A stretch of DNA of 64,000 bases from Aureivirga marina (GTDB lineage Bacteria > Bacteroidota > Bacteroidia > Flavobacteriales > Flavobacteriaceae): the NCBI RefSeq assembly GCF_015767265.1, contig NZ_JADPIB010000007.1:8307-72306 (forward strand), in the 5' to 3' direction. Position 1 is the stretch's first letter. Each line of letters starts with the position of its first letter. This document shows positions 24,101 through 34,298 of this stretch, in pieces. Under the pieces are notes generated by a model. The model did not search any database, was not told where the DNA came from, and saw only the letters and a list, made by a program, of their open reading frames with translations. The position numbers were made by a program, and so were the translations under genes.

Positions 24101-24525
24101 ATATCGCTGAAATCGAGAAAAAAGGAAGTATTTCTATCAGTATTAACGAAGAATTAGTATCTTTAAGTAAGGATGATGTTGAAATTAGCTCTCAAGATAT
24201 TGAAGGTTGGCTAGTTGCAAGTCATAATAATATTACTGTTGCTTTAGATATTACGATTACAGAGACTCTGAAAAATGAAGGAATCGCAAGAGAGTTAGTA
24301 AATAGAATTCAGAATTTACGTAAGGATTCAGGTTTAGAAGTAACTGATAAAGTGGCATTAACGATTAAGGAAAACGAAATGTTAACACCAGCAATTTCTG
24401 AAAACGAAGAATATATCAAAACAGAAACGCAAACAGTTTCAATAAACTATAGTGGTGGAGTTGGAAATGGTATTGCTGTTGAATTTGATGAAATTCAGAC
24501 AGAAATCGCTATTCAAAAAATTTAA
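21124..24525 (+). CDS. ileS: Isoleucyl-tRNA synthetase, type 2 (eukaryote/Bacteroidota-like)
   Basis: HIGH motif (PPSANGLPGIHH), KMSKS motif (KMSKSKGN), and editing and anticodon-binding domains. About 1133 aa from the ATG at 21124; the TTG at 21106 is rejected. Confidence 0.95.
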   Translation: MSAKYKEYKGLNLVQAAEEVADFWKTNNIFEKSITSREDNEPFVFFEGPPSANGLPGIHHVMARTIKDIFCRYKTLKGYQVKRKAGWDTHGLPVELGVEKELQITKEDIGTKISVEEYNDACRKAVMRYTDVWNNLTERIGYWVDMEDPYVTYKPKYMETVWWLLAQLYKKDLIYKGYTIQPYSPKAGTGLSSHELNQPGCYKDVTDTTIVAQFKAVKETLPEIFADIDGDVHFLAWTTTPWTLPSNTALTVGKKIDYVLVKSFNQYTGKEINVILAKNLVGKQFGKKFFVVEDVAELANFNKGDNKIPYFIAKEFKGADVLGVKYEQLLPYAQPYENADKAFVVIPGDFVTTEDGTGIVHTAPTFGQDDAQVAKDAGVPALLVLDAHENPVPLVDLQGRFTEHMGPYAGKYVKNEYYNTNEVPEKSVDVEIAIQLKEENKAFHVEKYKHSYPHCWRTDKPVLYYPLDSWFIKVTETKDRMFDLNETINWKPKSTGEGRFGNWLKNANDWNLSRSRYWGIPLPIWRTEDGAEAIIIESVAELKVEIEKSVAAGFMDTNVFADFEIGNMSDENYANVDLHKNIVDEIILVSSSGKPMKREADLIDVWFDSGSMPYAQWHYPFENKELIDNRESFPADFIAEGVDQTRGWFYTLHAIGTMVFDSVAYKNVVSNGLVLDKSGQKMSKSKGNAVDAFETLDKYGPDATRWYMISNANPWDNLKFDVDGIDEVRRKFFGTLYNTYSFFSLYANLDGFTYAEDDVPTAERPEIDRWILSELHTLIQDVDKFYKEYEPTKATRAIQDFVTENLSNWFVRLSRRRFWKGEYGTDKISAYQTLYKCMVTVAKLASPVSPFFTDRLYKDLTSVTGKDNVESVHLAKFPEFDASMVDKALERKMQKAQKISSMVLSLRKKENLKVRQPLQKIMIPILEANDKEDILAIQDLVLSEVNVKEIELLEDASGILVKNIKPNFKVLGPKFGKNMKLISAEINKLSQEDIAEIEKKGSISISINEELVSLSKDDVEISSQDIEGWLVASHNNITVALDITITETLKNEGIARELVNRIQNLRKDSGLEVTDKVALTIKENEMLTPAISENEEYIKTETQTVSINYSGGVGNGIAVEFDEIQTEIAIQKI

Positions 24526-24529
24526 GGTT

Positions 24530-24916
24530 ATGATAAACGATGGAACAACAGAAAGATATTCTGATGAATCACTAGAAGAATTTAAAGAAATAATCCTAGA
24601 GAAGATTAAAAATGCTGAAGAGGATTTACGTCTGTTAGAGTCTGTTTTTAAAAATGGTACAAGTAATAAAACGGATGATACTTCTCCTCAGTTTAAAGCT
24701 TTCGAAGAAGGATCTGAAACAATGTCTAAAGAAGCGAATGTGCAATTAGCAATTCGTCAGCAGAAGTTCATCAGAGACTTAAAAAATGCTTTAATCCGTA
24801 TTGAAAATAAAACATACGGAATTTGTAGAGTGACAGGAAAATTAATCAATAAAGAAAGATTAAAATTAGTTCCACACGCTACTTTAAGTATCGAAGCTAA
24901 AAAAATGCAATATTAA
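24530..24916 (+). CDS. DksA/TraR-family regulator, a zinc-finger-less variant
   Basis: The conserved position is immediately after ileS. The C-terminus CRVTGKLINKERLKLVPHATLSIEAK keeps only 1 of the 4 Cys expected in the C4 finger. The ORF-track extension to 24452 overlaps ileS and is rejected. Confidence 0.65.
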   Translation: MINDGTTERYSDESLEEFKEIILEKIKNAEEDLRLLESVFKNGTSNKTDDTSPQFKAFEEGSETMSKEANVQLAIRQQKFIRDLKNALIRIENKTYGICRVTGKLINKERLKLVPHATLSIEAKKMQY

Positions 24917-25666: not shown

Positions 25667-25687
25667 GAATAAATTAATTTATAAATG

Positions 25688-25724
25688 AAAAGTCCTTTAA
25701 GTAAAACTTAAAGGACTTTTTTAT
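25688..25724. terminator. Bidirectional terminator between convergent lspA and the giant ATPase gene
   Basis: Perfect 13-bp stem AAAGTCCTTTAAG/CTTAAAGGACTTT with an A-run on one side and a T-run on the other. Confidence 0.7.
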
Positions 25725-25726
25725 TT

Positions 25727-28700
25727 TTAATTCAAAGAAATTCTATCCACTTGAGCCATTTTCTGTAAACTTTCTGAAATTGCTTCCATTTGTTCTAAAA
25801 TTTGTCCCATTTGATTTCCTCCAACTAAGTTTAATTTTTGTTTTTTCAAGAAAGTTTCTTTGATGGAATTCCATCTATCTTTTTCTTCTTCAGATAAAAG
25901 TCCAATCATTTCTCTAAATTTCAAAATGTTCGCTTCTGCTCCTGAAGTTAAAGTCTGAGATTCTCTCTCATAATGCGAAATAATTAATGTTTTAAGTTCT
26001 TTATCGTTCATTACAGGAACAATTTTCTCTGCCATTTTATTCATATCACGATACGAACCTTGCAATTTAAACATTGGCTCTGTTCTATATTCTTCCGAAA
26101 TTCCTGCTGATTGAATATAAGCTTGATTTACTTTTAAAACCACATCTCGAACTTCAATTAACTTTTTGAATACAGAAATATATTCTTTGATTTCTATTGC
26201 CGAATGATTTGCTTCAAACTCTACATTTTCTCTCTGATTTGTTTCTGCAATTTTTAAAATGGTCAGAATATCTTTTTGACTTTTATTCGCCAATTTTGAA
26301 AGCGTTGGATTCGAAGTAATACTATTTTCTATATAAGACAATTCAAATTCATAAGCCGAATCTCCAAGAATATCTCCAAGATTATAAATATCTGCACGGT
26401 TTGCAAGCATGTCTGGAATCTGGAATTTCTCTCCACTTTCTGTATATGGATTTCCTGCCATTATCACACAAACTTTCTTTCCTCGGAAATCATAGGTTTT
26501 AGGTTTTCCTTTATAAACTCCTTCAATTTTACGCTGTCCATCACAAAGCGAAATAAACTTTTGTAAAAACTCTGGATTACAATGCTGAATGTCGTCTAAA
26601 TAAATCATTACATTGTCCCCCATTTCAAAAGCCAAATTCAACTTTTCTAATTCTTGTTTTGCTCCAGCATTTGTTGCTTCAGACGGATCTACAGAAGTAA
26701 TATCATGTCCTAAAGCAGGCCCGTTTATTTTCATAAAAATCAAACCAAGTCTGTTTGCAACATATTCCATCAACGTTGTTTTTCCATATCCTGGAGGAGA
26801 AATTAATAATAAAAGTCCCATCAAATCGGTTCTTTTATTTTCTCCAGCAGTTCCGATTTGTTTCGCTAAGTTCGCTCCAATAATTTGCAGATAAACTTTA
26901 TCAATCAATTGATTTCTCACAAAAGAAGAAAGAACTCTCGGCTTAAACTCTCCAAGTCGCATCGTTTCTGAAGTTTCTTCTAATAATTCGTGTTTTAAAG
27001 AAGTAAATTTCTCATACGTTGGAACTACAGTTTCACTATATTTTTCCAATTTATTCTGGAAATCATGAATGTTTAATTGGTATTTTCCATCTTCAATAAT
27101 TTCATGTGTTCCAGTCAAATTTTCTAAAGTTTCTTCTGTAATTACTTTATGCACATTTTTCTTCACATCCGATTGTAAAATGATTAATAAAGCTGCTTCT
27201 TCTACATTTTTGATATATGAACTTTTCGAATTTTGCATAAACGCTTTTAACCAAGTCTGAATTGTCTGAAAACGAATGCTCATATCTTCGATTTCTTCCA
27301 TCGATTTTTCAAAAGCATTTTTCATCTTTTTTCCTCGTAATTCAATATCAAAAGAATGTACTAAATCCGCAGCGTTTGCATCAATCACAAAGTTTTCATT
27401 AAATGCTAATTCATCAAAAAGATAATCACAAGCTTGTTCTACAGAAGTATTCCAAGTGATGTTTTCAGATTCAAAGCAAATTTCTAAACGATTTTGCATT
27501 TGGTTTTTTATTGCTTCAAATTCTTTTGTATTTGGAAAAACTTTTAATAAAATTCCTGCTGCTTTTAGTTGTTGTTCTAAAATTTTCTTTGCTTCTTCCT
27601 TTTCCCAAATTTCCCAATAAAATCTAGCAAAAGCACGAGTTGTTGCATCATGTTTTAGCATTCCAACATGTGAATACATTTGAATTAAATTGTGTAAAAT
27701 CAACAAAGTATCTTGATCATGAACTCCTTTCACATAACCTTCAGAATATTTGGAAGCACTGAATTTTTGGATAACTTTCAATAAATCTTTCGAATCTAAA
27801 GTTGAAATATCATCCCAAGTGATAATTGCTTTTGTAGTATTATCAATTAATTCTTTTCTCTTTACAGCTTCTAAAATCTGATAAGCCAAATATTCCGAAC
27901 GATATACATTTCTATTTTCTGAAGGTAAAATCTGATTCCAAACTGGCCGATATTCATTAAAAGTTTTATCTACAACTTCTTCAAAATAATCAGTTCCTGT
28001 CAAATGATAATACATTTTATCATTTTTGAACACCATAGTTAAATCTAAATTCTGTGTGTTTACAGAGAATTTATAATTTCCAAACTGAATAATGTTTTTC
28101 CCATCAACAAAAAGTTCTGACTTATCTTTTAGCTGACGAATTGCTTCTTCTTTTAAAGATTTCAGCTTACTTTGAATATCATCAGCTTTTACAGAATCTC
28201 CAATATTTTCAAGTTCTTCAATCGTTTTTCGGATTTTCTCCACCATCAAATCGGAAGCAATATATCCGTTGATTTCCGAAACTTCTTTAAATCGAGATAA
28301 TCTACTTTTTACAGATTTTAAAATTCTTTCTGCAGTTTGTTGTAAAGTCGTTGCTCTTTTATTTCTAGCTTCTACTAAAGCAACTTTTTTCGATTCAAAA
28401 GCGTTGTATAATTCTTCTCTTTTTAAAGATATTTTTTCAACAAAAGAATCAAATTCAGAAAATTTCCCTTCCAATTCTTCTAGTTGTACCATCAATTTTG
28501 TAAGATATTCCTCACATTTTTCTGGTGTATCACATAAATCGATGTAGTTTACAACTCCTTGATCAACTAATTTGATTTGCGCATTAAATTCTGCTTTTCC
28601 TTCTTCTCCTAATAAACTTTTACGTTTTCTTTTTAAACTCGCTTTTATTTGGTTGAAAGAAGCATAAATCTCCGAAATATTATCAATAATTCTCGTTGTT

Positions 28701-30640
28701 TCTGTCGCATCTTCAATTTGCAGATTAGAAACAATTTCGATTAACATTTCTAATTCCGCAGCATTTTCTGTGATTTTTTCTTCTAAAGCATTTGCTTCAA
28801 CAACTTTCTTGATTTGCTCAATTTCTGCTGTTAATTCCGAAACTTTTTGCTGATATGGAGCTAAAGCTTCTTTTTTCAATAAGAATTGCACACAAGATTT
28901 AGAAGTTTCTTCCGTGAATTGCCCTAAAATTTCATCATAGTTTTCAACAGCTTCAATATCTACATAACGCAATTCTTTCAAAGAAATCACTTCTCCACGA
29001 ACTTTTCGAAGATTTGTCAATGACTGTACAAAATCATTAATATGATGTGGAATTTCTCTTTTGATTACACGAATTAACTCATCTGCTTCTGCTGTAACTT
29101 TTTCATATTCATTTTTAGTATTTTGCTGAATCTGACGAACTTTTTCATATTCTTCCACAGCTGCTGAAGCCGTTTCTTTTATAGCATGAAGCGGAACTGT
29201 AAGTTCAAAAGTTTCTTTTTTGTTTAACCAATGATACGTATCTAAAACATCTGTACTATATTTTATAATGTCTAAATATAAATCGTTGTAAACTTCTTCT
29301 TTATCTGTCAAAGTCATCAGCGAATGACATTCCGCCATCGCACGAACGATATCTTTATTTCCGATTTTGTATAAAAACGAATCTTTATTTCCATCAATTT
29401 GAAAATCTGCTCCAATAAAAGGTGTTTGCCAAATCTGAATTGCATGGTGTTTTTTCGCTTCTTCTTCTGCTTTAAACAAACACATTTCTCCATTATCAAA
29501 TAAAGAAAAACCATGACAAACAATCGGATTTTCTACTCTTTGCTCAATCAAATTATAAGGCAAAAGTAAATAAACTCCTTTGCTTTGATTGTAAAACACA
29601 TACAAGAAATCCTCTCCATTTGGCGAAGTAATACATCTTTCAAAAAGCATGTGTTCCAAATCTTGCTCAAAACGTTTGTATTCTCCAGATTGTAAATAAT
29701 AACCATCCGAGAAAAGTAAACCTTGACTTTCTGGAAGTAAAATACAAGCTTCTTCCATCGAATCTACACGTTTTACTTCTTGTAATTTGCTGTTATAAAC
29801 AAAATAACGAAACGCTTCTTGGTAAGGTTTAATTCTAAAAATCACTAAATGATCAATGATTGCATATTCTACTTCTGCATCATCCAATCGTTGTTCCTGA
29901 TGTTTTACAGGTTCATTGTAAATTCCTTTTCCATCCTTTGTATTGTCTTCTACTTTGATGGTTAAATCCCCACCAACTGTTTCTACAAAAACAATATCTT
30001 CTATCGAAATATGTGGATGTTCTCCCTCGCAAAAGTTCTCACGAGTCGTTTGTTTCCAACGAAATTCATGTTGATGTGGAAAACGAAATTCATGTTCACT
30101 TCGATTATCTACATATTGTAATGTTTCTTCTTTTATCAGCCATTTAAACGTTTTGATATCTTCCTCACGAGTTCCAAAACGGAAAACCATATGAAGATAC
30201 TGACCAATTTTTGCAAACTTTACAAACTGTGTATCTCTGTAATATTTATATAAATTCTGAAAATCTCTATGGAAATTTTCGTCGTCTAAAATTTCTAGAG
30301 TAGCTTGATGAAATTCATGATCTCGGAAACAATAAAAACTAAAAACATCTTCTAGTTTTATTTCCGTTTTCAAGCCCATGTGAATATTGTAACCAAAAAG
30401 AAAATGATTTCCCAAAGAAAACATATCCCAAGGCACACAATTATAATTTGTCGTTACTCTTTCTGTGGCTTGAAGTTGAAAATCAATCGCTCCAAAAACA
30501 TCTTTTCTAGCAACATTTAATTGATTTAATCTTTCTCTTAAATCTACATTGTCTTTACGCAATCTTTGCTTCAGAATCTCATACGTTCCTCCGTCTAATT
30601 GCATTTCTGTATTTTCTATATTTTCTTTTTGATCGTTCAT
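25727..30640 (-). CDS. Giant 1637-aa multidomain protein with one AAA_5 (dynein/midasin/MoxR-type) ATPase module and extensive coiled coils. Third gene of the NfeD-flotillin operon.
   Basis: Walker A ISPPGYGKTT. Walker B and AAA_5 box IYLDDIQHCNPEFLQKFISL. Sensor and Arg region VCVIMAGNPYTESGEKFQIPDMLANRADIYNL. The ATPase lies at about aa 1150-1350. The N-terminal roughly 450 aa form a Cys/His/Trp-rich domain, and aa 450-800 are E/K-rich coiled coil. Confidence 0.85.
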   Translation of the reverse strand: MNDQKENIENTEMQLDGGTYEILKQRLRKDNVDLRERLNQLNVARKDVFGAIDFQLQATERVTTNYNCVPWDMFSLGNHFLFGYNIHMGLKTEIKLEDVFSFYCFRDHEFHQATLEILDDENFHRDFQNLYKYYRDTQFVKFAKIGQYLHMVFRFGTREEDIKTFKWLIKEETLQYVDNRSEHEFRFPHQHEFRWKQTTRENFCEGEHPHISIEDIVFVETVGGDLTIKVEDNTKDGKGIYNEPVKHQEQRLDDAEVEYAIIDHLVIFRIKPYQEAFRYFVYNSKLQEVKRVDSMEEACILLPESQGLLFSDGYYLQSGEYKRFEQDLEHMLFERCITSPNGEDFLYVFYNQSKGVYLLLPYNLIEQRVENPIVCHGFSLFDNGEMCLFKAEEEAKKHHAIQIWQTPFIGADFQIDGNKDSFLYKIGNKDIVRAMAECHSLMTLTDKEEVYNDLYLDIIKYSTDVLDTYHWLNKKETFELTVPLHAIKETASAAVEEYEKVRQIQQNTKNEYEKVTAEADELIRVIKREIPHHINDFVQSLTNLRKVRGEVISLKELRYVDIEAVENYDEILGQFTEETSKSCVQFLLKKEALAPYQQKVSELTAEIEQIKKVVEANALEEKITENAAELEMLIEIVSNLQIEDATETTRIIDNISEIYASFNQIKASLKRKRKSLLGEEGKAEFNAQIKLVDQGVVNYIDLCDTPEKCEEYLTKLMVQLEELEGKFSEFDSFVEKISLKREELYNAFESKKVALVEARNKRATTLQQTAERILKSVKSRLSRFKEVSEINGYIASDLMVEKIRKTIEELENIGDSVKADDIQSKLKSLKEEAIRQLKDKSELFVDGKNIIQFGNYKFSVNTQNLDLTMVFKNDKMYYHLTGTDYFEEVVDKTFNEYRPVWNQILPSENRNVYRSEYLAYQILEAVKRKELIDNTTKAIITWDDISTLDSKDLLKVIQKFSASKYSEGYVKGVHDQDTLLILHNLIQMYSHVGMLKHDATTRAFARFYWEIWEKEEAKKILEQQLKAAGILLKVFPNTKEFEAIKNQMQNRLEICFESENITWNTSVEQACDYLFDELAFNENFVIDANAADLVHSFDIELRGKKMKNAFEKSMEEIEDMSIRFQTIQTWLKAFMQNSKSSYIKNVEEAALLIILQSDVKKNVHKVITEETLENLTGTHEIIEDGKYQLNIHDFQNKLEKYSETVVPTYEKFTSLKHELLEETSETMRLGEFKPRVLSSFVRNQLIDKVYLQIIGANLAKQIGTAGENKRTDLMGLLLLISPPGYGKTTLMEYVANRLGLIFMKINGPALGHDITSVDPSEATNAGAKQELEKLNLAFEMGDNVMIYLDDIQHCNPEFLQKFISLCDGQRKIEGVYKGKPKTYDFRGKKVCVIMAGNPYTESGEKFQIPDMLANRADIYNLGDILGDSAYEFELSYIENSITSNPTLSKLANKSQKDILTILKIAETNQRENVEFEANHSAIEIKEYISVFKKLIEVRDVVLKVNQAYIQSAGISEEYRTEPMFKLQGSYRDMNKMAEKIVPVMNDKELKTLIISHYERESQTLTSGAEANILKFREMIGLLSEEEKDRWNSIKETFLKKQKLNLVGGNQMGQILEQMEAISESLQKMAQVDRISLN

Positions 30641-30679: not shown

Positions 30680-30850
30680 TAAAAAAAGGGTGTGATTATT
30701 TTCTTTAAAATCAATTAATCTTATTTTTTAAAATGGAATAATTAATGAAATATGGACATTGATTTGAAAATATACACACCCTAGACTTTCCTTTTTCTAA
30801 TAGAATTTTTACCCTTTTAACTATTCTATTTTCTTTTAATCAAGAACATT

Positions 30851-30873
30851 TCATGGTGAAATGTTCCTGATAT
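30851..30873. promoter_or_regulatory. Perfect 10-bp inverted repeat GAACATTTCA-TGG-TGAAATGTTC, just 3' of the flotillin gene
   Basis: A hairpin without a strong U-tract. It could be an attenuator or processing site, or a regulator-binding site between the flotillin and ATPase genes. Confidence 0.35.
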
Positions 30874-30898: not shown

Positions 30899-33103
30899 TT
30901 AGTTCAATCCGATGCTTGCTGGAGTTTTATCTGAAACACCTAACATTTTAGAAACCGATTGTAATTGGTTTAACACAGAAAGAGAATCTTCATCTTGTGT
31001 TTGTTGCATTAATTTGTAAAGTAATGCAGAAATTGTTAAGTTTTTCAAATCTTCAGAGTTTACTCCAAACTGATCGATAAACATTTTAAAATTTTCTTTA
31101 AAACCATTTCCATTTTCACCATTGAAGAAAGTTCCTTTTACTTCTTGTAATACTTCACTATTTCCAACAGCTTTGTCAATTGCTTTTCCAGTTGTTATTG
31201 CACTAGTCAATTTATCAAAGAACATAGATTCTCCACCGATAATGTCAATATTAGACGATTGTAGCGCCTCTGCTAATACACCAGCTTGTGAAGCAGCAAT
31301 ATCTTTGTTTGCATCAATTCTAGCCAATTCAATTTCTTTAGCTTGCTCTAAGCGTAAACGGAACTCTTCATGAGCAACGCTTGTAGGATCTAATATCTTC
31401 ATTGCATCTGCTTTCTTACGAATTCCTTCCGCTTCCACTTCCAGTTTCTCGTTTAAGATGCGAACATCAACCAATCCTTGTTTTTCATTAGCTTCCGCTT
31501 GAACTTGAATAACTTCAGCTTGAGCTAATCCTTTTTCTCTTTCTATTTGTGCAGCAACTTCCCCAATCTTTTTGTCCGCTTCCGCTTGAGCAATACCTTT
31601 AACTTCAATTCCTTTTGCTTCTGCATGTGCTGTAGCTTCAACAGCAGCAGCTTCTGCAGCAGCCTCTTTTTCGCGAGCTTCCGCTTTTGCTTCCATAACT
31701 TGTGCTTCCGACATTCCGATTGCAGCAGCTTCGGCAGCAGCAGCTTCCGCTAATATTTTAGTAGCTTCTGCATCATGAATTGCAGCAGTTTCTTTACTCT
31801 TCGCATCAATTAACATTTTCTCAGCATGTAATTTCGAAGCTTCTTTTGCAGCATCTGCTTCTTTGATTTTCTTCACTAATGCTGATTCTGCTTCTTGTTC
31901 TGCGTTTTTCAGTGCAACTACTTTATCTCTTTCCGCTTTTGCTAGTGCTTGTGTATCTTTAATTTTTTCTTGTTCTTCTACAACCGCTTTTTCTACAGAA
32001 ACTCTTTCACGAATTACATCTTGAATATTTTTCTGTTCGATTTCGATTGCTCTTTGTTTTTCAATTTGAGCTAACTCAACAATTCTTGTTTTTTCAGTTT
32101 CTTCTAAAAGTCTTGCTTGCTCTACACGTTCCGCTTCAATTGCTTCGATTTTTTCTTTATTTTTCTCTGCAACAATTACTTCACGCATTCTATTTTCTTC
32201 TGCAATTTGAATTTGCTCTTCTGTAGCAATTCTTGCTTTTTCAGCTTTTAAGCGCTCTTCTTCATTAATTCTATCAACTTCAGATTGCTCTCTAGCTTTA
32301 ATATTTTCGATTTCACGTTTTTGACGCTCTTCTGCTTCAACTTTTTGTTTTTCTAAGTTTAAGATTGTCTCTTGCGCTTCAACATCTTGTTGTTTGATTG
32401 TTTTTTCTTTATCTCTTTCAACTAAATTAGATTGTACTTTTTGTTCCGCAGTTAATTCAATAATTTTCTTGATACCTTCTGCATCTAAAATGTTACTTTC
32501 ATCTAATTCATTAATTGGAGTTTGTTCTAAAAAGTCAATCGCACAATCTTCTAATTTGTATCCATTTAAATCTGTACCAATAATATTTACAATTGCTTGG
32601 TTAAATTCTCTACGTGAAGTATATAATTCTACAAATTCAAATTGCTTACCAACTGTTTTTAATGCTTCTGCAAATTTTGGTTCGTATAATCCTCTTAACG
32701 TTTCTGGATCTGATGCTCTATCACAACCAATAGATTTAGCAACTTCTGCAACTTTATCAACATTCACACGAACGAAAAATGTTACTTTAATATCTGCTCT
32801 CATATTGTCTTTACAAATCAGACCTTCAGAACCAGTTCTTGAAATTGTAATCGTTTTTACACGAATATCCATTTTTTCAAGTCTATGTAATACCGGAATT
32901 GATATTAAACCAGATGAAGATACTTTTGGTTTTTTATCTACACCACCAAAACCTCCAGTTCTAACTAAAACTTCTCCCTGAGCAGCTTTGTTGTACATTT
33001 TAATAATAATGACTAAAAATACAATGATTGCAAAGGCTATAAGCCCAAGAGTAAAATACCCTGCATAAGCTCCTGTTCCTAATTCTTGTACTGTTTCTTC
33101 CAT
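30899..33103 (-). CDS. Flotillin / SPFH (band-7) family protein of the YqiK type, with a greatly expanded Glu/Ala/Lys coiled-coil region
   Basis: N-terminal TM helix, then an SPFH domain (VLVRTGGFGG...ISIPVLHRLEKMDIRVKTITI) and flotillin-type EA-repeat coiled coils. 734 aa, compared with about 550 aa for E. coli YqiK. Confidence 0.85.
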   Translation of the reverse strand: MEETVQELGTGAYAGYFTLGLIAFAIIVFLVIIIKMYNKAAQGEVLVRTGGFGGVDKKPKVSSSGLISIPVLHRLEKMDIRVKTITISRTGSEGLICKDNMRADIKVTFFVRVNVDKVAEVAKSIGCDRASDPETLRGLYEPKFAEALKTVGKQFEFVELYTSRREFNQAIVNIIGTDLNGYKLEDCAIDFLEQTPINELDESNILDAEGIKKIIELTAEQKVQSNLVERDKEKTIKQQDVEAQETILNLEKQKVEAEERQKREIENIKAREQSEVDRINEEERLKAEKARIATEEQIQIAEENRMREVIVAEKNKEKIEAIEAERVEQARLLEETEKTRIVELAQIEKQRAIEIEQKNIQDVIRERVSVEKAVVEEQEKIKDTQALAKAERDKVVALKNAEQEAESALVKKIKEADAAKEASKLHAEKMLIDAKSKETAAIHDAEATKILAEAAAAEAAAIGMSEAQVMEAKAEAREKEAAAEAAAVEATAHAEAKGIEVKGIAQAEADKKIGEVAAQIEREKGLAQAEVIQVQAEANEKQGLVDVRILNEKLEVEAEGIRKKADAMKILDPTSVAHEEFRLRLEQAKEIELARIDANKDIAASQAGVLAEALQSSNIDIIGGESMFFDKLTSAITTGKAIDKAVGNSEVLQEVKGTFFNGENGNGFKENFKMFIDQFGVNSEDLKNLTISALLYKLMQQTQDEDSLSVLNQLQSVSKMLGVSDKTPASIGLN

Positions 33104-33255: not shown

Positions 33256-33900
33256 TTAGATTTTTGCAACTAAGTAGTAATCTTCTTCTTCGTAATGTTC
33301 TACAATTACAACTTCGTCTCCTCTGTAAATTTTTCTTCCTTCAATAGATTTGATATTTAGACGAACTTTATCTCCACCAAATTCTAAATCAGCTTGACTT
33401 AATTTTTCATTTTCTGTGTCGTAAAGAACTGTACACATTTTGCCAACAAAATTAGTATCGATTGTTCCGTCTAATCCATCCCAAACTTTTACGAAAGGAA
33501 TACATGCATATTTTGCAAAAAGCAAGGATACAAATGTTATAGGAATTAAAAGTAGAAATCCTATTAAGAAAGAGTTATTTCCAATGATATGATTGATATA
33601 AATTGAAAGCCCCCACATTGGAATAGCAACAAAAAATAGGTAGATCATGATTGGAAGTTTTCCAATATTAAAAAAACTAAGGAACCCTGAAATTCCACCT
33701 CCAGTAGAAATATCAGCATCAGCATCTATGTCAGCATCTAAATCTACATCCATATCAACATCTGTATCTATATCAAAATCAATAGAATCGAATTCTACCA
33801 ATCCAATTATGGCGATTAAACCATAAATGATTAAAAATATTAGCAAAGCTGTCGGGATGATGTTTGCTCCTGTAATTGCTATTTTTAATAACTCTAACAT
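33256..33900 (-). CDS. NfeD-like / YqiJ-family membrane protein with a C-terminal OB-fold. Partner of flotillin and first gene of the operon.
   Basis: TM helices, an acidic DIDTDVDMDVDLDADIDADAD tract, and a C-terminal beta-rich domain (KMCTVLYDTENEKLSQADLEFGGDKVRLNIKSIEG) consistent with an NfeD OB-fold. Confidence 0.65.
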   Translation of the reverse strand: MLELLKIAITGANIIPTALLIFLIIYGLIAIIGLVEFDSIDFDIDTDVDMDVDLDADIDADADISTGGGISGFLSFFNIGKLPIMIYLFFVAIPMWGLSIYINHIIGNNSFLIGFLLLIPITFVSLLFAKYACIPFVKVWDGLDGTIDTNFVGKMCTVLYDTENEKLSQADLEFGGDKVRLNIKSIEGRKIYRGDEVVIVEHYEEEDYYLVAKI

Positions 33901-34271: not shown

Positions 34272-34298
34272 TAAAAAAAGCAGCTCAAAAAGCTGCTC
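34272..34298 (-). terminator. Rho-independent terminator of truB (minus strand)
   Basis: AGCAGCT and AGCTGCT form a stem. The A-run on the + strand gives a U-tract on the minus strand. Confidence 0.6.

Follow-up and report, generated by a model that had tools for sequence, protein, structure and literature searches.

The DNA analysed here (the window) is a stretch of 64,000 nucleotides from a contig of the flavobacterium Aureivirga marina (NZ_JADPIB010000007.1), and all coordinates refer to positions in it. Three consecutive genes on its reverse strand code for a YqiJ-like membrane protein, a flotillin, and a giant ATPase of 1637 amino acids (aa), which NCBI lists, at 100% identity, as 'DNA repair ATPase [Aureivirga marina]'. 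In related genomes the ATPase gene nearly always adjoins a flotillin gene, and the protein therefore probably acts on membrane scaffolds and not on DNA. The three genes are:

33256..33900, reverse strand: YqiJ/YuaF (NfeD-like) membrane protein of 214 aa, first gene of the unit (Pfam YqiJ_N, BLASTP)
30899..33103, reverse strand: YqiK-type flotillin of 734 aa, directly upstream of the ATPase gene (hhalign to Escherichia coli YqiK)
25727..30640, reverse strand: DUF3686-DUF7902-AAA+ protein of 1637 aa (list of open reading frames and translation, Pfam matches, identical NCBI entry)

The ATPase gene is a single uninterrupted open reading frame (ORF) with an ATG start. An earlier reading of this DNA from its letters alone, referred to below as the original prediction, had described the same intact giant ORF, and all strings quoted in it were located in the translation. 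At least 4980 homologs were scored at NCBI. Those listed share 55-69% identity with the query over at least 95% of its length, and coverage among the 120 homologs listed is at least 95% in all and 98-100% in all but one. A frame of 4.9 kb in a genome of 30% G+C that is conserved end to end in hundreds of genomes, at 45-69% identity, is a real gene and not a chance ORF or a fusion artefact, a possibility that the original prediction itself had raised. When representatives clustered at 50% identity were searched with the N-terminal domain, 714 clusters were recovered, and in full-length members (1600-1930 aa) this domain is always N-terminal. A scan of one genome per species yielded at least 588 confirmed loci from Bacteroidota, Planctomycetota, Verrucomicrobiota, Desulfobacterota, Clostridia, and Lentisphaeria; a Vibrio member exists as well. 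The Aureivirga protein has the N-terminal DUF3686, the DUF7902 in the arm, and the single C-terminal AAA domain of this family and is collinear with its relatives. It is thus a full-length member of a family that is spread over many bacterial phyla. From the N- to the C-terminus, it consists of the following parts:

29231..30544, reverse strand: DUF3686 domain, aa 33-470 (Pfam PF12458, E-value 6e-186, profile positions 1-448 of 448)
28106..29203, reverse strand: helical arm of ~365 aa, aa 480-845 (composition, heptad scan, conserved family motifs)
28616..28870, reverse strand: DUF7902 within the helical arm, aa 591-675 (Pfam PF25472, E-value 1.2e-30)
26855..28093, reverse strand: middle domain of ~410 aa, aa 850-1262 (AlphaFold2 model, invariant residues)
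26366..26812, reverse strand: alpha/beta core of the AAA+ module, aa 1277-1425 (Pfam, AlphaFold2 model, invariant motifs)
25730..26365, reverse strand: helical lid and C-terminal extension, aa 1426-1637 (AlphaFold2 model, invariant columns)

Two AlphaFold2 models, of aa 1-480 and aa 840-1637, were each built on an alignment of 40 sequences, and invariance was judged on an alignment of 26 diverse relatives with identities down to 29%. The first model (pLDDT 84.6, pTM 0.85) contains a disordered tip, a helix at aa 17-49, approximately 27 beta strands between aa 55 and 405, and helices at aa 422-478. Every top match of this model in a Foldseek search against the PDB was a beta-propeller (E-values from 1e-7 to 1e-5), including Elp1, DCAF1, Fbw7, CyRPA, Vps11, and prolyl oligopeptidase, but the TM-scores were at most 0.27. 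For this reason the N-terminal head, as modelled, is best described as an all-beta domain of propeller-type blades without a close solved relative. The His-, Cys-, and Trp-rich strings in this region lie at aa 65-89 (NYNCVPWDMF...HMG) and aa 203-210 (FCEGEHPH), and H399 and W471 are the only residues of these three types that are invariant. The possibility that the His/Cys-rich N-terminus binds a metal was considered and rejected, since these residues are not conserved across the family and do not indicate a metal cluster.

The helical arm that follows holds strongly conserved family motifs. For the coiled coil of at least 350 aa that had been predicted here, the span is correct (aa 480-845), but a crude heptad scan divided it into five separate heptad-like stretches (aa 484-529, 585-619, 643-681, 707-793, and 815-847). 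The original prediction missed the middle domain, which begins with a small beta unit and continues with about 350 mostly helical residues. According to the second model (pLDDT 82.9, pTM 0.66), the beta unit (aa 850-888) precedes a helical part at about aa 915-1155, a beta-hairpin, and a long helix that leads into the ATPase. The helical part carries the family-invariant motif EGYxKGVHDxDA (G972, H974, D977), and near aa 1177-1179 a G-x-H is conserved. The domain has no match in Pfam, and a profile search of the PDB gave nothing significant. As predicted, the ATPase is C-terminal, but its core occupies the last quarter of the protein rather than the C-terminal third; about 1275 aa precede it instead of the estimated 1100 or so, and about 215 aa, not about 300, follow R1415. 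The C-terminal extension contains the invariant motif QGSYR (aa 1527-1531), a candidate sensor 2 whose pattern recovered the family in the genome scan.

Over aa 1277-1402, Pfam reports AAA (32.8 bits) and AAA_5 (27.0 bits), each above its curated cut-off, and only this one AAA stretch. The P-loop thus belongs to the AAA/AAA_5 and not to the ABC or SMC class, and the single ATPase module named in the original prediction is confirmed. The core contains the Walker A motif GYGKTT with K1287 (in the string ISPPGYGKTT, aa 1280-1289), the Walker B motif LDD with D1349 and D1350 (in IYLDDIQHCNPEFLQKFISL, aa 1346-1365), the sensor 1 residue N1397 (in VIMAGNPYTESG, aa 1392-1403), and the candidate arginine finger R1415 (in ANRADIYNL, aa 1413-1421). 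We take LDDIQHCNPEFLQKFISL to fit the AAA_5 consensus 'lDEinranpevlnsLlslL' and AGNPYTESGEKFQIPDMLANR to fit 'atmNP...G...lp.al.sRf'. Invariant in the 26 relatives are SPPGYGKTT, D1349-D1350, Q1352-H1353, N1397, R1415, and QGSYR, and in the predicted structure K1287, D1349/D1350, N1397, and R1415 sit on the expected strands and helices in AAA+ order. That the catalytic motifs are invariant even where identity falls to 29% speaks for a functional nucleotide site. Walker B reads DD rather than DE; the same DDIQ box occurs in DnaA, a slow, regulated ATPase.

The AlphaFold2 model predicts a pre-sensor-1 beta-hairpin at aa 1371-1384 (strands 1371-1376 and 1379-1384), placed between the helix at aa 1356-1366 and the sensor-1 strand at aa 1390-1396. 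The beta2-alpha2 segment (aa 1308-1324) is modelled as a loop without a hairpin, and no aromatic pore-loop motif was seen when its sequence was read. Between beta5 and QGSYR lie about 105 aa of predicted helices, which are compatible with a pre-sensor-II insert. The nearest fold relatives of the ATPase are the MoxR-class proteins CbbQ and NorQ. As the original prediction had stated, there is no VWA domain; none was matched in the protein or in ten neighbouring ORFs. The dynein/midasin/MoxR class proposed at the outset is upheld: the ATPase is firmly assigned as a MoxR/AAA_5-class AAA+ module without a VWA partner. When the PDB was searched by sequence, the whole protein and a profile of its ATPase domain gave matches at the Walker A segment alone. 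These do not indicate a clade, because they came from classical AAA proteins and midasin alike. An NCBIfam match to 3-succinylated cholic acid synthase was dismissed as noise (22 bits against a cut-off of 800).

CbbQ and NorQ have about 260 aa and a separate VWA/MIDAS partner (CbbO and NorD, respectively). Unlike them, the Aureivirga protein has a propeller, an arm, and a helical domain, about 1275 aa in all, fused in front of the ATPase, lacks a VWA partner, and has the DD form of Walker B. It also differs from midasin and the dynein heavy chain, which concatenate six AAA modules per chain, in having only one (aa 1277-1402), and any ring must therefore be a homo-oligomer. The original prediction did not recognize this arrangement and on the whole holds only in part. 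The domain order is already present in Pfam and NCBI and has been published (Ravi et al., 2024). Architecture, family, and operon are thus catalogued and not new. Table S3 of that study lists 'Betapropeller+Coiled-coil+AAA-ATPase' for the flavobacterium Dokdonia donghaensis (PMC11237479), and the Aureivirga protein shares with the DUF3686/DUF7902 family described there the domain order, length, invariant motifs, and upstream YqiJ and flotillin genes. In the literature on DUF3686/PF12458 and on the flotillin-linked 'DNA repair ATPase', only the comparative-genomics description and no experimental work were found.

The linkage to flotillin was quantified at related loci that have enough upstream sequence. 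In 64 of 66 loci (~97%), the gene immediately upstream, in the same orientation, codes for a flotillin (median gap about 170 bp), and a yqiJ-like gene is present in 56 of 63. Genes for PspA (23 of 62 loci) and for a YbjN/CesT-like chaperone (22 of 62) are less frequent, and the pspA-bearing loci, judged from record titles, appear all to belong to Bacteroidota. The two loci without a flotillin neighbour (L030 and L038) are from metagenome-assembled genomes of a member of the Desulfobacteraceae, with an ORF of 1865 aa, and of a member of the Bacteroidia. In Nibribacter (L016:7592-9953), three ORFs for small membrane proteins are located between the flotillin and ATPase genes, and downstream of the ATPase gene of Aureibacter tunicatorum (L086:11942-14282) lie, in the same orientation, an ORF of 124 aa and genes for an FHA-domain protein and a Ser/Thr protein kinase.

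The Aureivirga flotillin consists of an N-terminal membrane segment, an SPFH domain, a long E/A-rich coiled coil, and a conserved C-terminal part. Aligned as a family with E. coli YqiK by hhalign, it matches over 400 columns that take in the membrane segment, SPFH domain, and coiled coil (probability 100%, E-value 6e-42). Nevertheless, the protein itself has no match in Pfam or NCBIfam, Band_7 was matched in only 2 of 20 relatives, and a PDB profile search found only QmcA (E-value 0.0025); this flotillin subfamily represents an annotation gap. It is also longer than YqiK (734 versus 553 aa). Its last ~145 aa have no BLASTP match to YqiK and are conserved within the subfamily, but the match of the C-terminal 274 aa to YqiK is too weak to call a family-specific extension. 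The 214-aa protein matches Pfam YqiJ_N (E-value 8e-5) and E. coli YqiJ (BLASTP E-value 9e-8, collinear over 195 aa). The first two Aureivirga genes are thus homologous to yqiJ and yqiK and have the same order as E. coli yqiJ-yqiK and Bacillus subtilis yuaF-floT. E. coli K-12 lacks a protein-coding gene after yqiK in that orientation, and the next annotated features there are the toxin-small RNA loci sibD/ibsD and sibE/ibsE, whereas the Aureivirga unit adds the giant ATPase as a third gene.

Two terminator-like structures, found in a terminator scan, flank the unit:

34278..34298, reverse strand: terminator-like hairpin after truB, upstream of yqiJ
25687..25721, no strand assigned: 16-bp hairpin with T-runs on either side, between the convergent lspA and AAA+ genes

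The first probably marks the start of a separate yqiJ-flotillin-AAA+ transcription unit, and the second is likely a bidirectional terminator that closes it. No terminator was predicted on the reverse strand between the three genes. A sigma-70 promoter scan, which does not model Bacteroidota promoters, gave matches at the level of shuffled sequence. The gap of 258 bp between the flotillin and ATPase genes contains a perfect 9-bp hairpin (GAACATTTC-accat-GAAATGTTC, 30844-30866, reverse strand) 33 nt past the flotillin stop codon. No T-run follows this hairpin, which might act in attenuation or mark a site of RNA processing. The operon is surrounded by the housekeeping genes ileS, lspA, truB, uppP, and ftsX. 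An ORF for a DksA/TraR zinc-finger protein (24452-24916, forward strand), as listed with a GTG start, shares 74 nt with the 3' end of ileS; its true start is probably located further downstream.

No match to PspA or YbjN/CesT was found anywhere in the 64-kb window. The locus thus has the 'abbreviated' form without the CesT/Tir-PspA pair that is also reported by Ravi et al. (PMC11237479). The same three-gene form occurs in Aureibacter, the nearest relative among the matches listed, and a five-gene form in Hymenobacter. Among these matches, the Aureivirga protein is closer to homologs from Cytophagales (Aureibacter 69%, Fulvitalea 66%) than to those from Flavobacteriaceae (~50%). Furthermore, the cesT/ybjN-pspA pair is missing from Aureivirga as it is from Aureibacter and Pontibacter, whereas those named flavobacterial loci that extend far enough upstream possess it (Tenacibaculum, Aquimarina, Leeuwenhoekiella, Flavobacterium, Maribacter, and others). 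The Cytophagales-like identity and the missing pair, both unlike its own family, suggest that Aureivirga acquired the three-gene form laterally.

Taken together, we lean, with modest confidence, towards the explanation that the protein is the ATPase of a conserved membrane module of YqiJ, flotillin, and DUF3686-AAA+ protein that remodels scaffolds. The architecture and the gene linkage are close to certain, whereas the remodelling step is less likely than not. To judge from the structural kinship with CbbQ and NorQ, the C-terminal module would form a hexameric ring, from which arms would project that carry six propeller heads. The flotillin assembly on the cytoplasmic side, or PspA polymers where PspA is co-encoded, may be the docking site of these heads, and ATP hydrolysis would then drive the assembly, remodelling, or disassembly of the oligomeric scaffolds during envelope stress. 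The propeller would thereby act as the adaptor, in place of the VWA protein of ordinary MoxR ATPases. This mechanism is based on the idea of an analogy, in function only, with Vps4 and ESCRT-III, where an ATPase is genetically coupled to polymer-forming membrane remodellers; PspA is a relative of ESCRT-III. According to a 2025 review, bacteria appear to be without a Vps4-like ATPase for PspA (PMC7619361). As a speculation that we regard as rather doubtful, the family might be the missing ATP-driven remodeller of bacterial membrane scaffolds and the functional counterpart of Vps4: a MoxR-type hexamer of another AAA+ clade that does not thread its substrate and whose six propeller-tipped arms would grip the flotillin dome, and PspA/ESCRT-III polymers where these are co-encoded, to dismantle or recycle them.

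Alternatively, the protein might be a MoxR-type maturation chaperone of another membrane complex or enzyme, with the flotillin as a platform that concentrates clients and not as the substrate. CbbQ and NorQ, its nearest structural relatives, act as activases or maturases for particular enzymes. Ravi et al. (PMC11237479) also proposed a chaperone-like role, namely in the assembly of complexes linked to the membrane. However, no conserved candidate for a client gene lies by the operon, whose flanks in Aureivirga, Aureibacter, and Hymenobacter differ from one another; a VWA adaptor is missing, and flotillin and YqiJ are the only invariant neighbours. We therefore consider this role unlikely, albeit worth keeping in mind. 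An anti-phage or conflict system, in which flotillin and YqiJ would form a membrane sensor that triggers the large ATPase as effector, is much less probable. Features that would suit such a system are the size and multi-domain build of this NTPase, its propeller head, and its place in a small operon alongside membrane proteins; PspA-type envelope stress genes also respond to phage secretins. Yet PADLOC returned only insignificant P-loop matches (mad8, E-value 0.0018; TRIP13, E-value 0.0078) and none for flotillin or YqiJ, and Pfam revealed no nuclease, protease, TIR, or other effector domain. In addition, the operon is located among housekeeping genes in the window, and from phylum to phylum both the length of the protein and the order of the operon stay uniform, which is not typical of defence islands.

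The database names imply an ATPase that acts in DNA repair like SMC, Rad50, and SbcC; the Pfam title of PF12458 is 'ATPase involved in DNA repair'. The long helical region indeed recalls SMC-like proteins, and weak matches to RuvB were obtained (Pfam RuvB_N, E-value 1.7e-4; NCBIfam RuvB equivalogs, E-values 5.7e-5 and 9.2e-4). These matches are confined to the Walker A region, lie far below the cut-off, and are the only hint toward DNA. In SMC, Rad50, and SbcC, an ABC-type head with a signature motif is split by an antiparallel coiled coil with a hinge or zinc hook. This organization was not found in the Aureivirga protein, which has a contiguous MoxR-class AAA+ module. Moreover, it has no DNA-binding or nuclease domain, no repair genes are nearby, and the conserved partners are membrane proteins. 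A role in DNA repair thus fails, because the ATPase is not ABC- or SMC-like and its partners are membrane proteins, and we regard it as highly improbable. Apart from the weak RuvB match, the name 'DNA repair ATPase' has no support from the analyses.

Flotillins and PspA are central to membrane organization and repair in bacteria. For the turnover of their large assemblies, a widespread giant ATPase whose gene is linked to flotillin at ~97% of the examined loci suggests itself as a candidate, and its misleading name conceals the family from membrane biologists. What the present analysis contributes is a cleaned-up domain map, the firm placement of the ATPase in the MoxR class with no VWA partner, and figures for the gene linkage. 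On this basis, direct experiments on the proposed remodelling of membrane scaffolds can readily be designed in a tractable host from the Bacteroidota or Clostridia.
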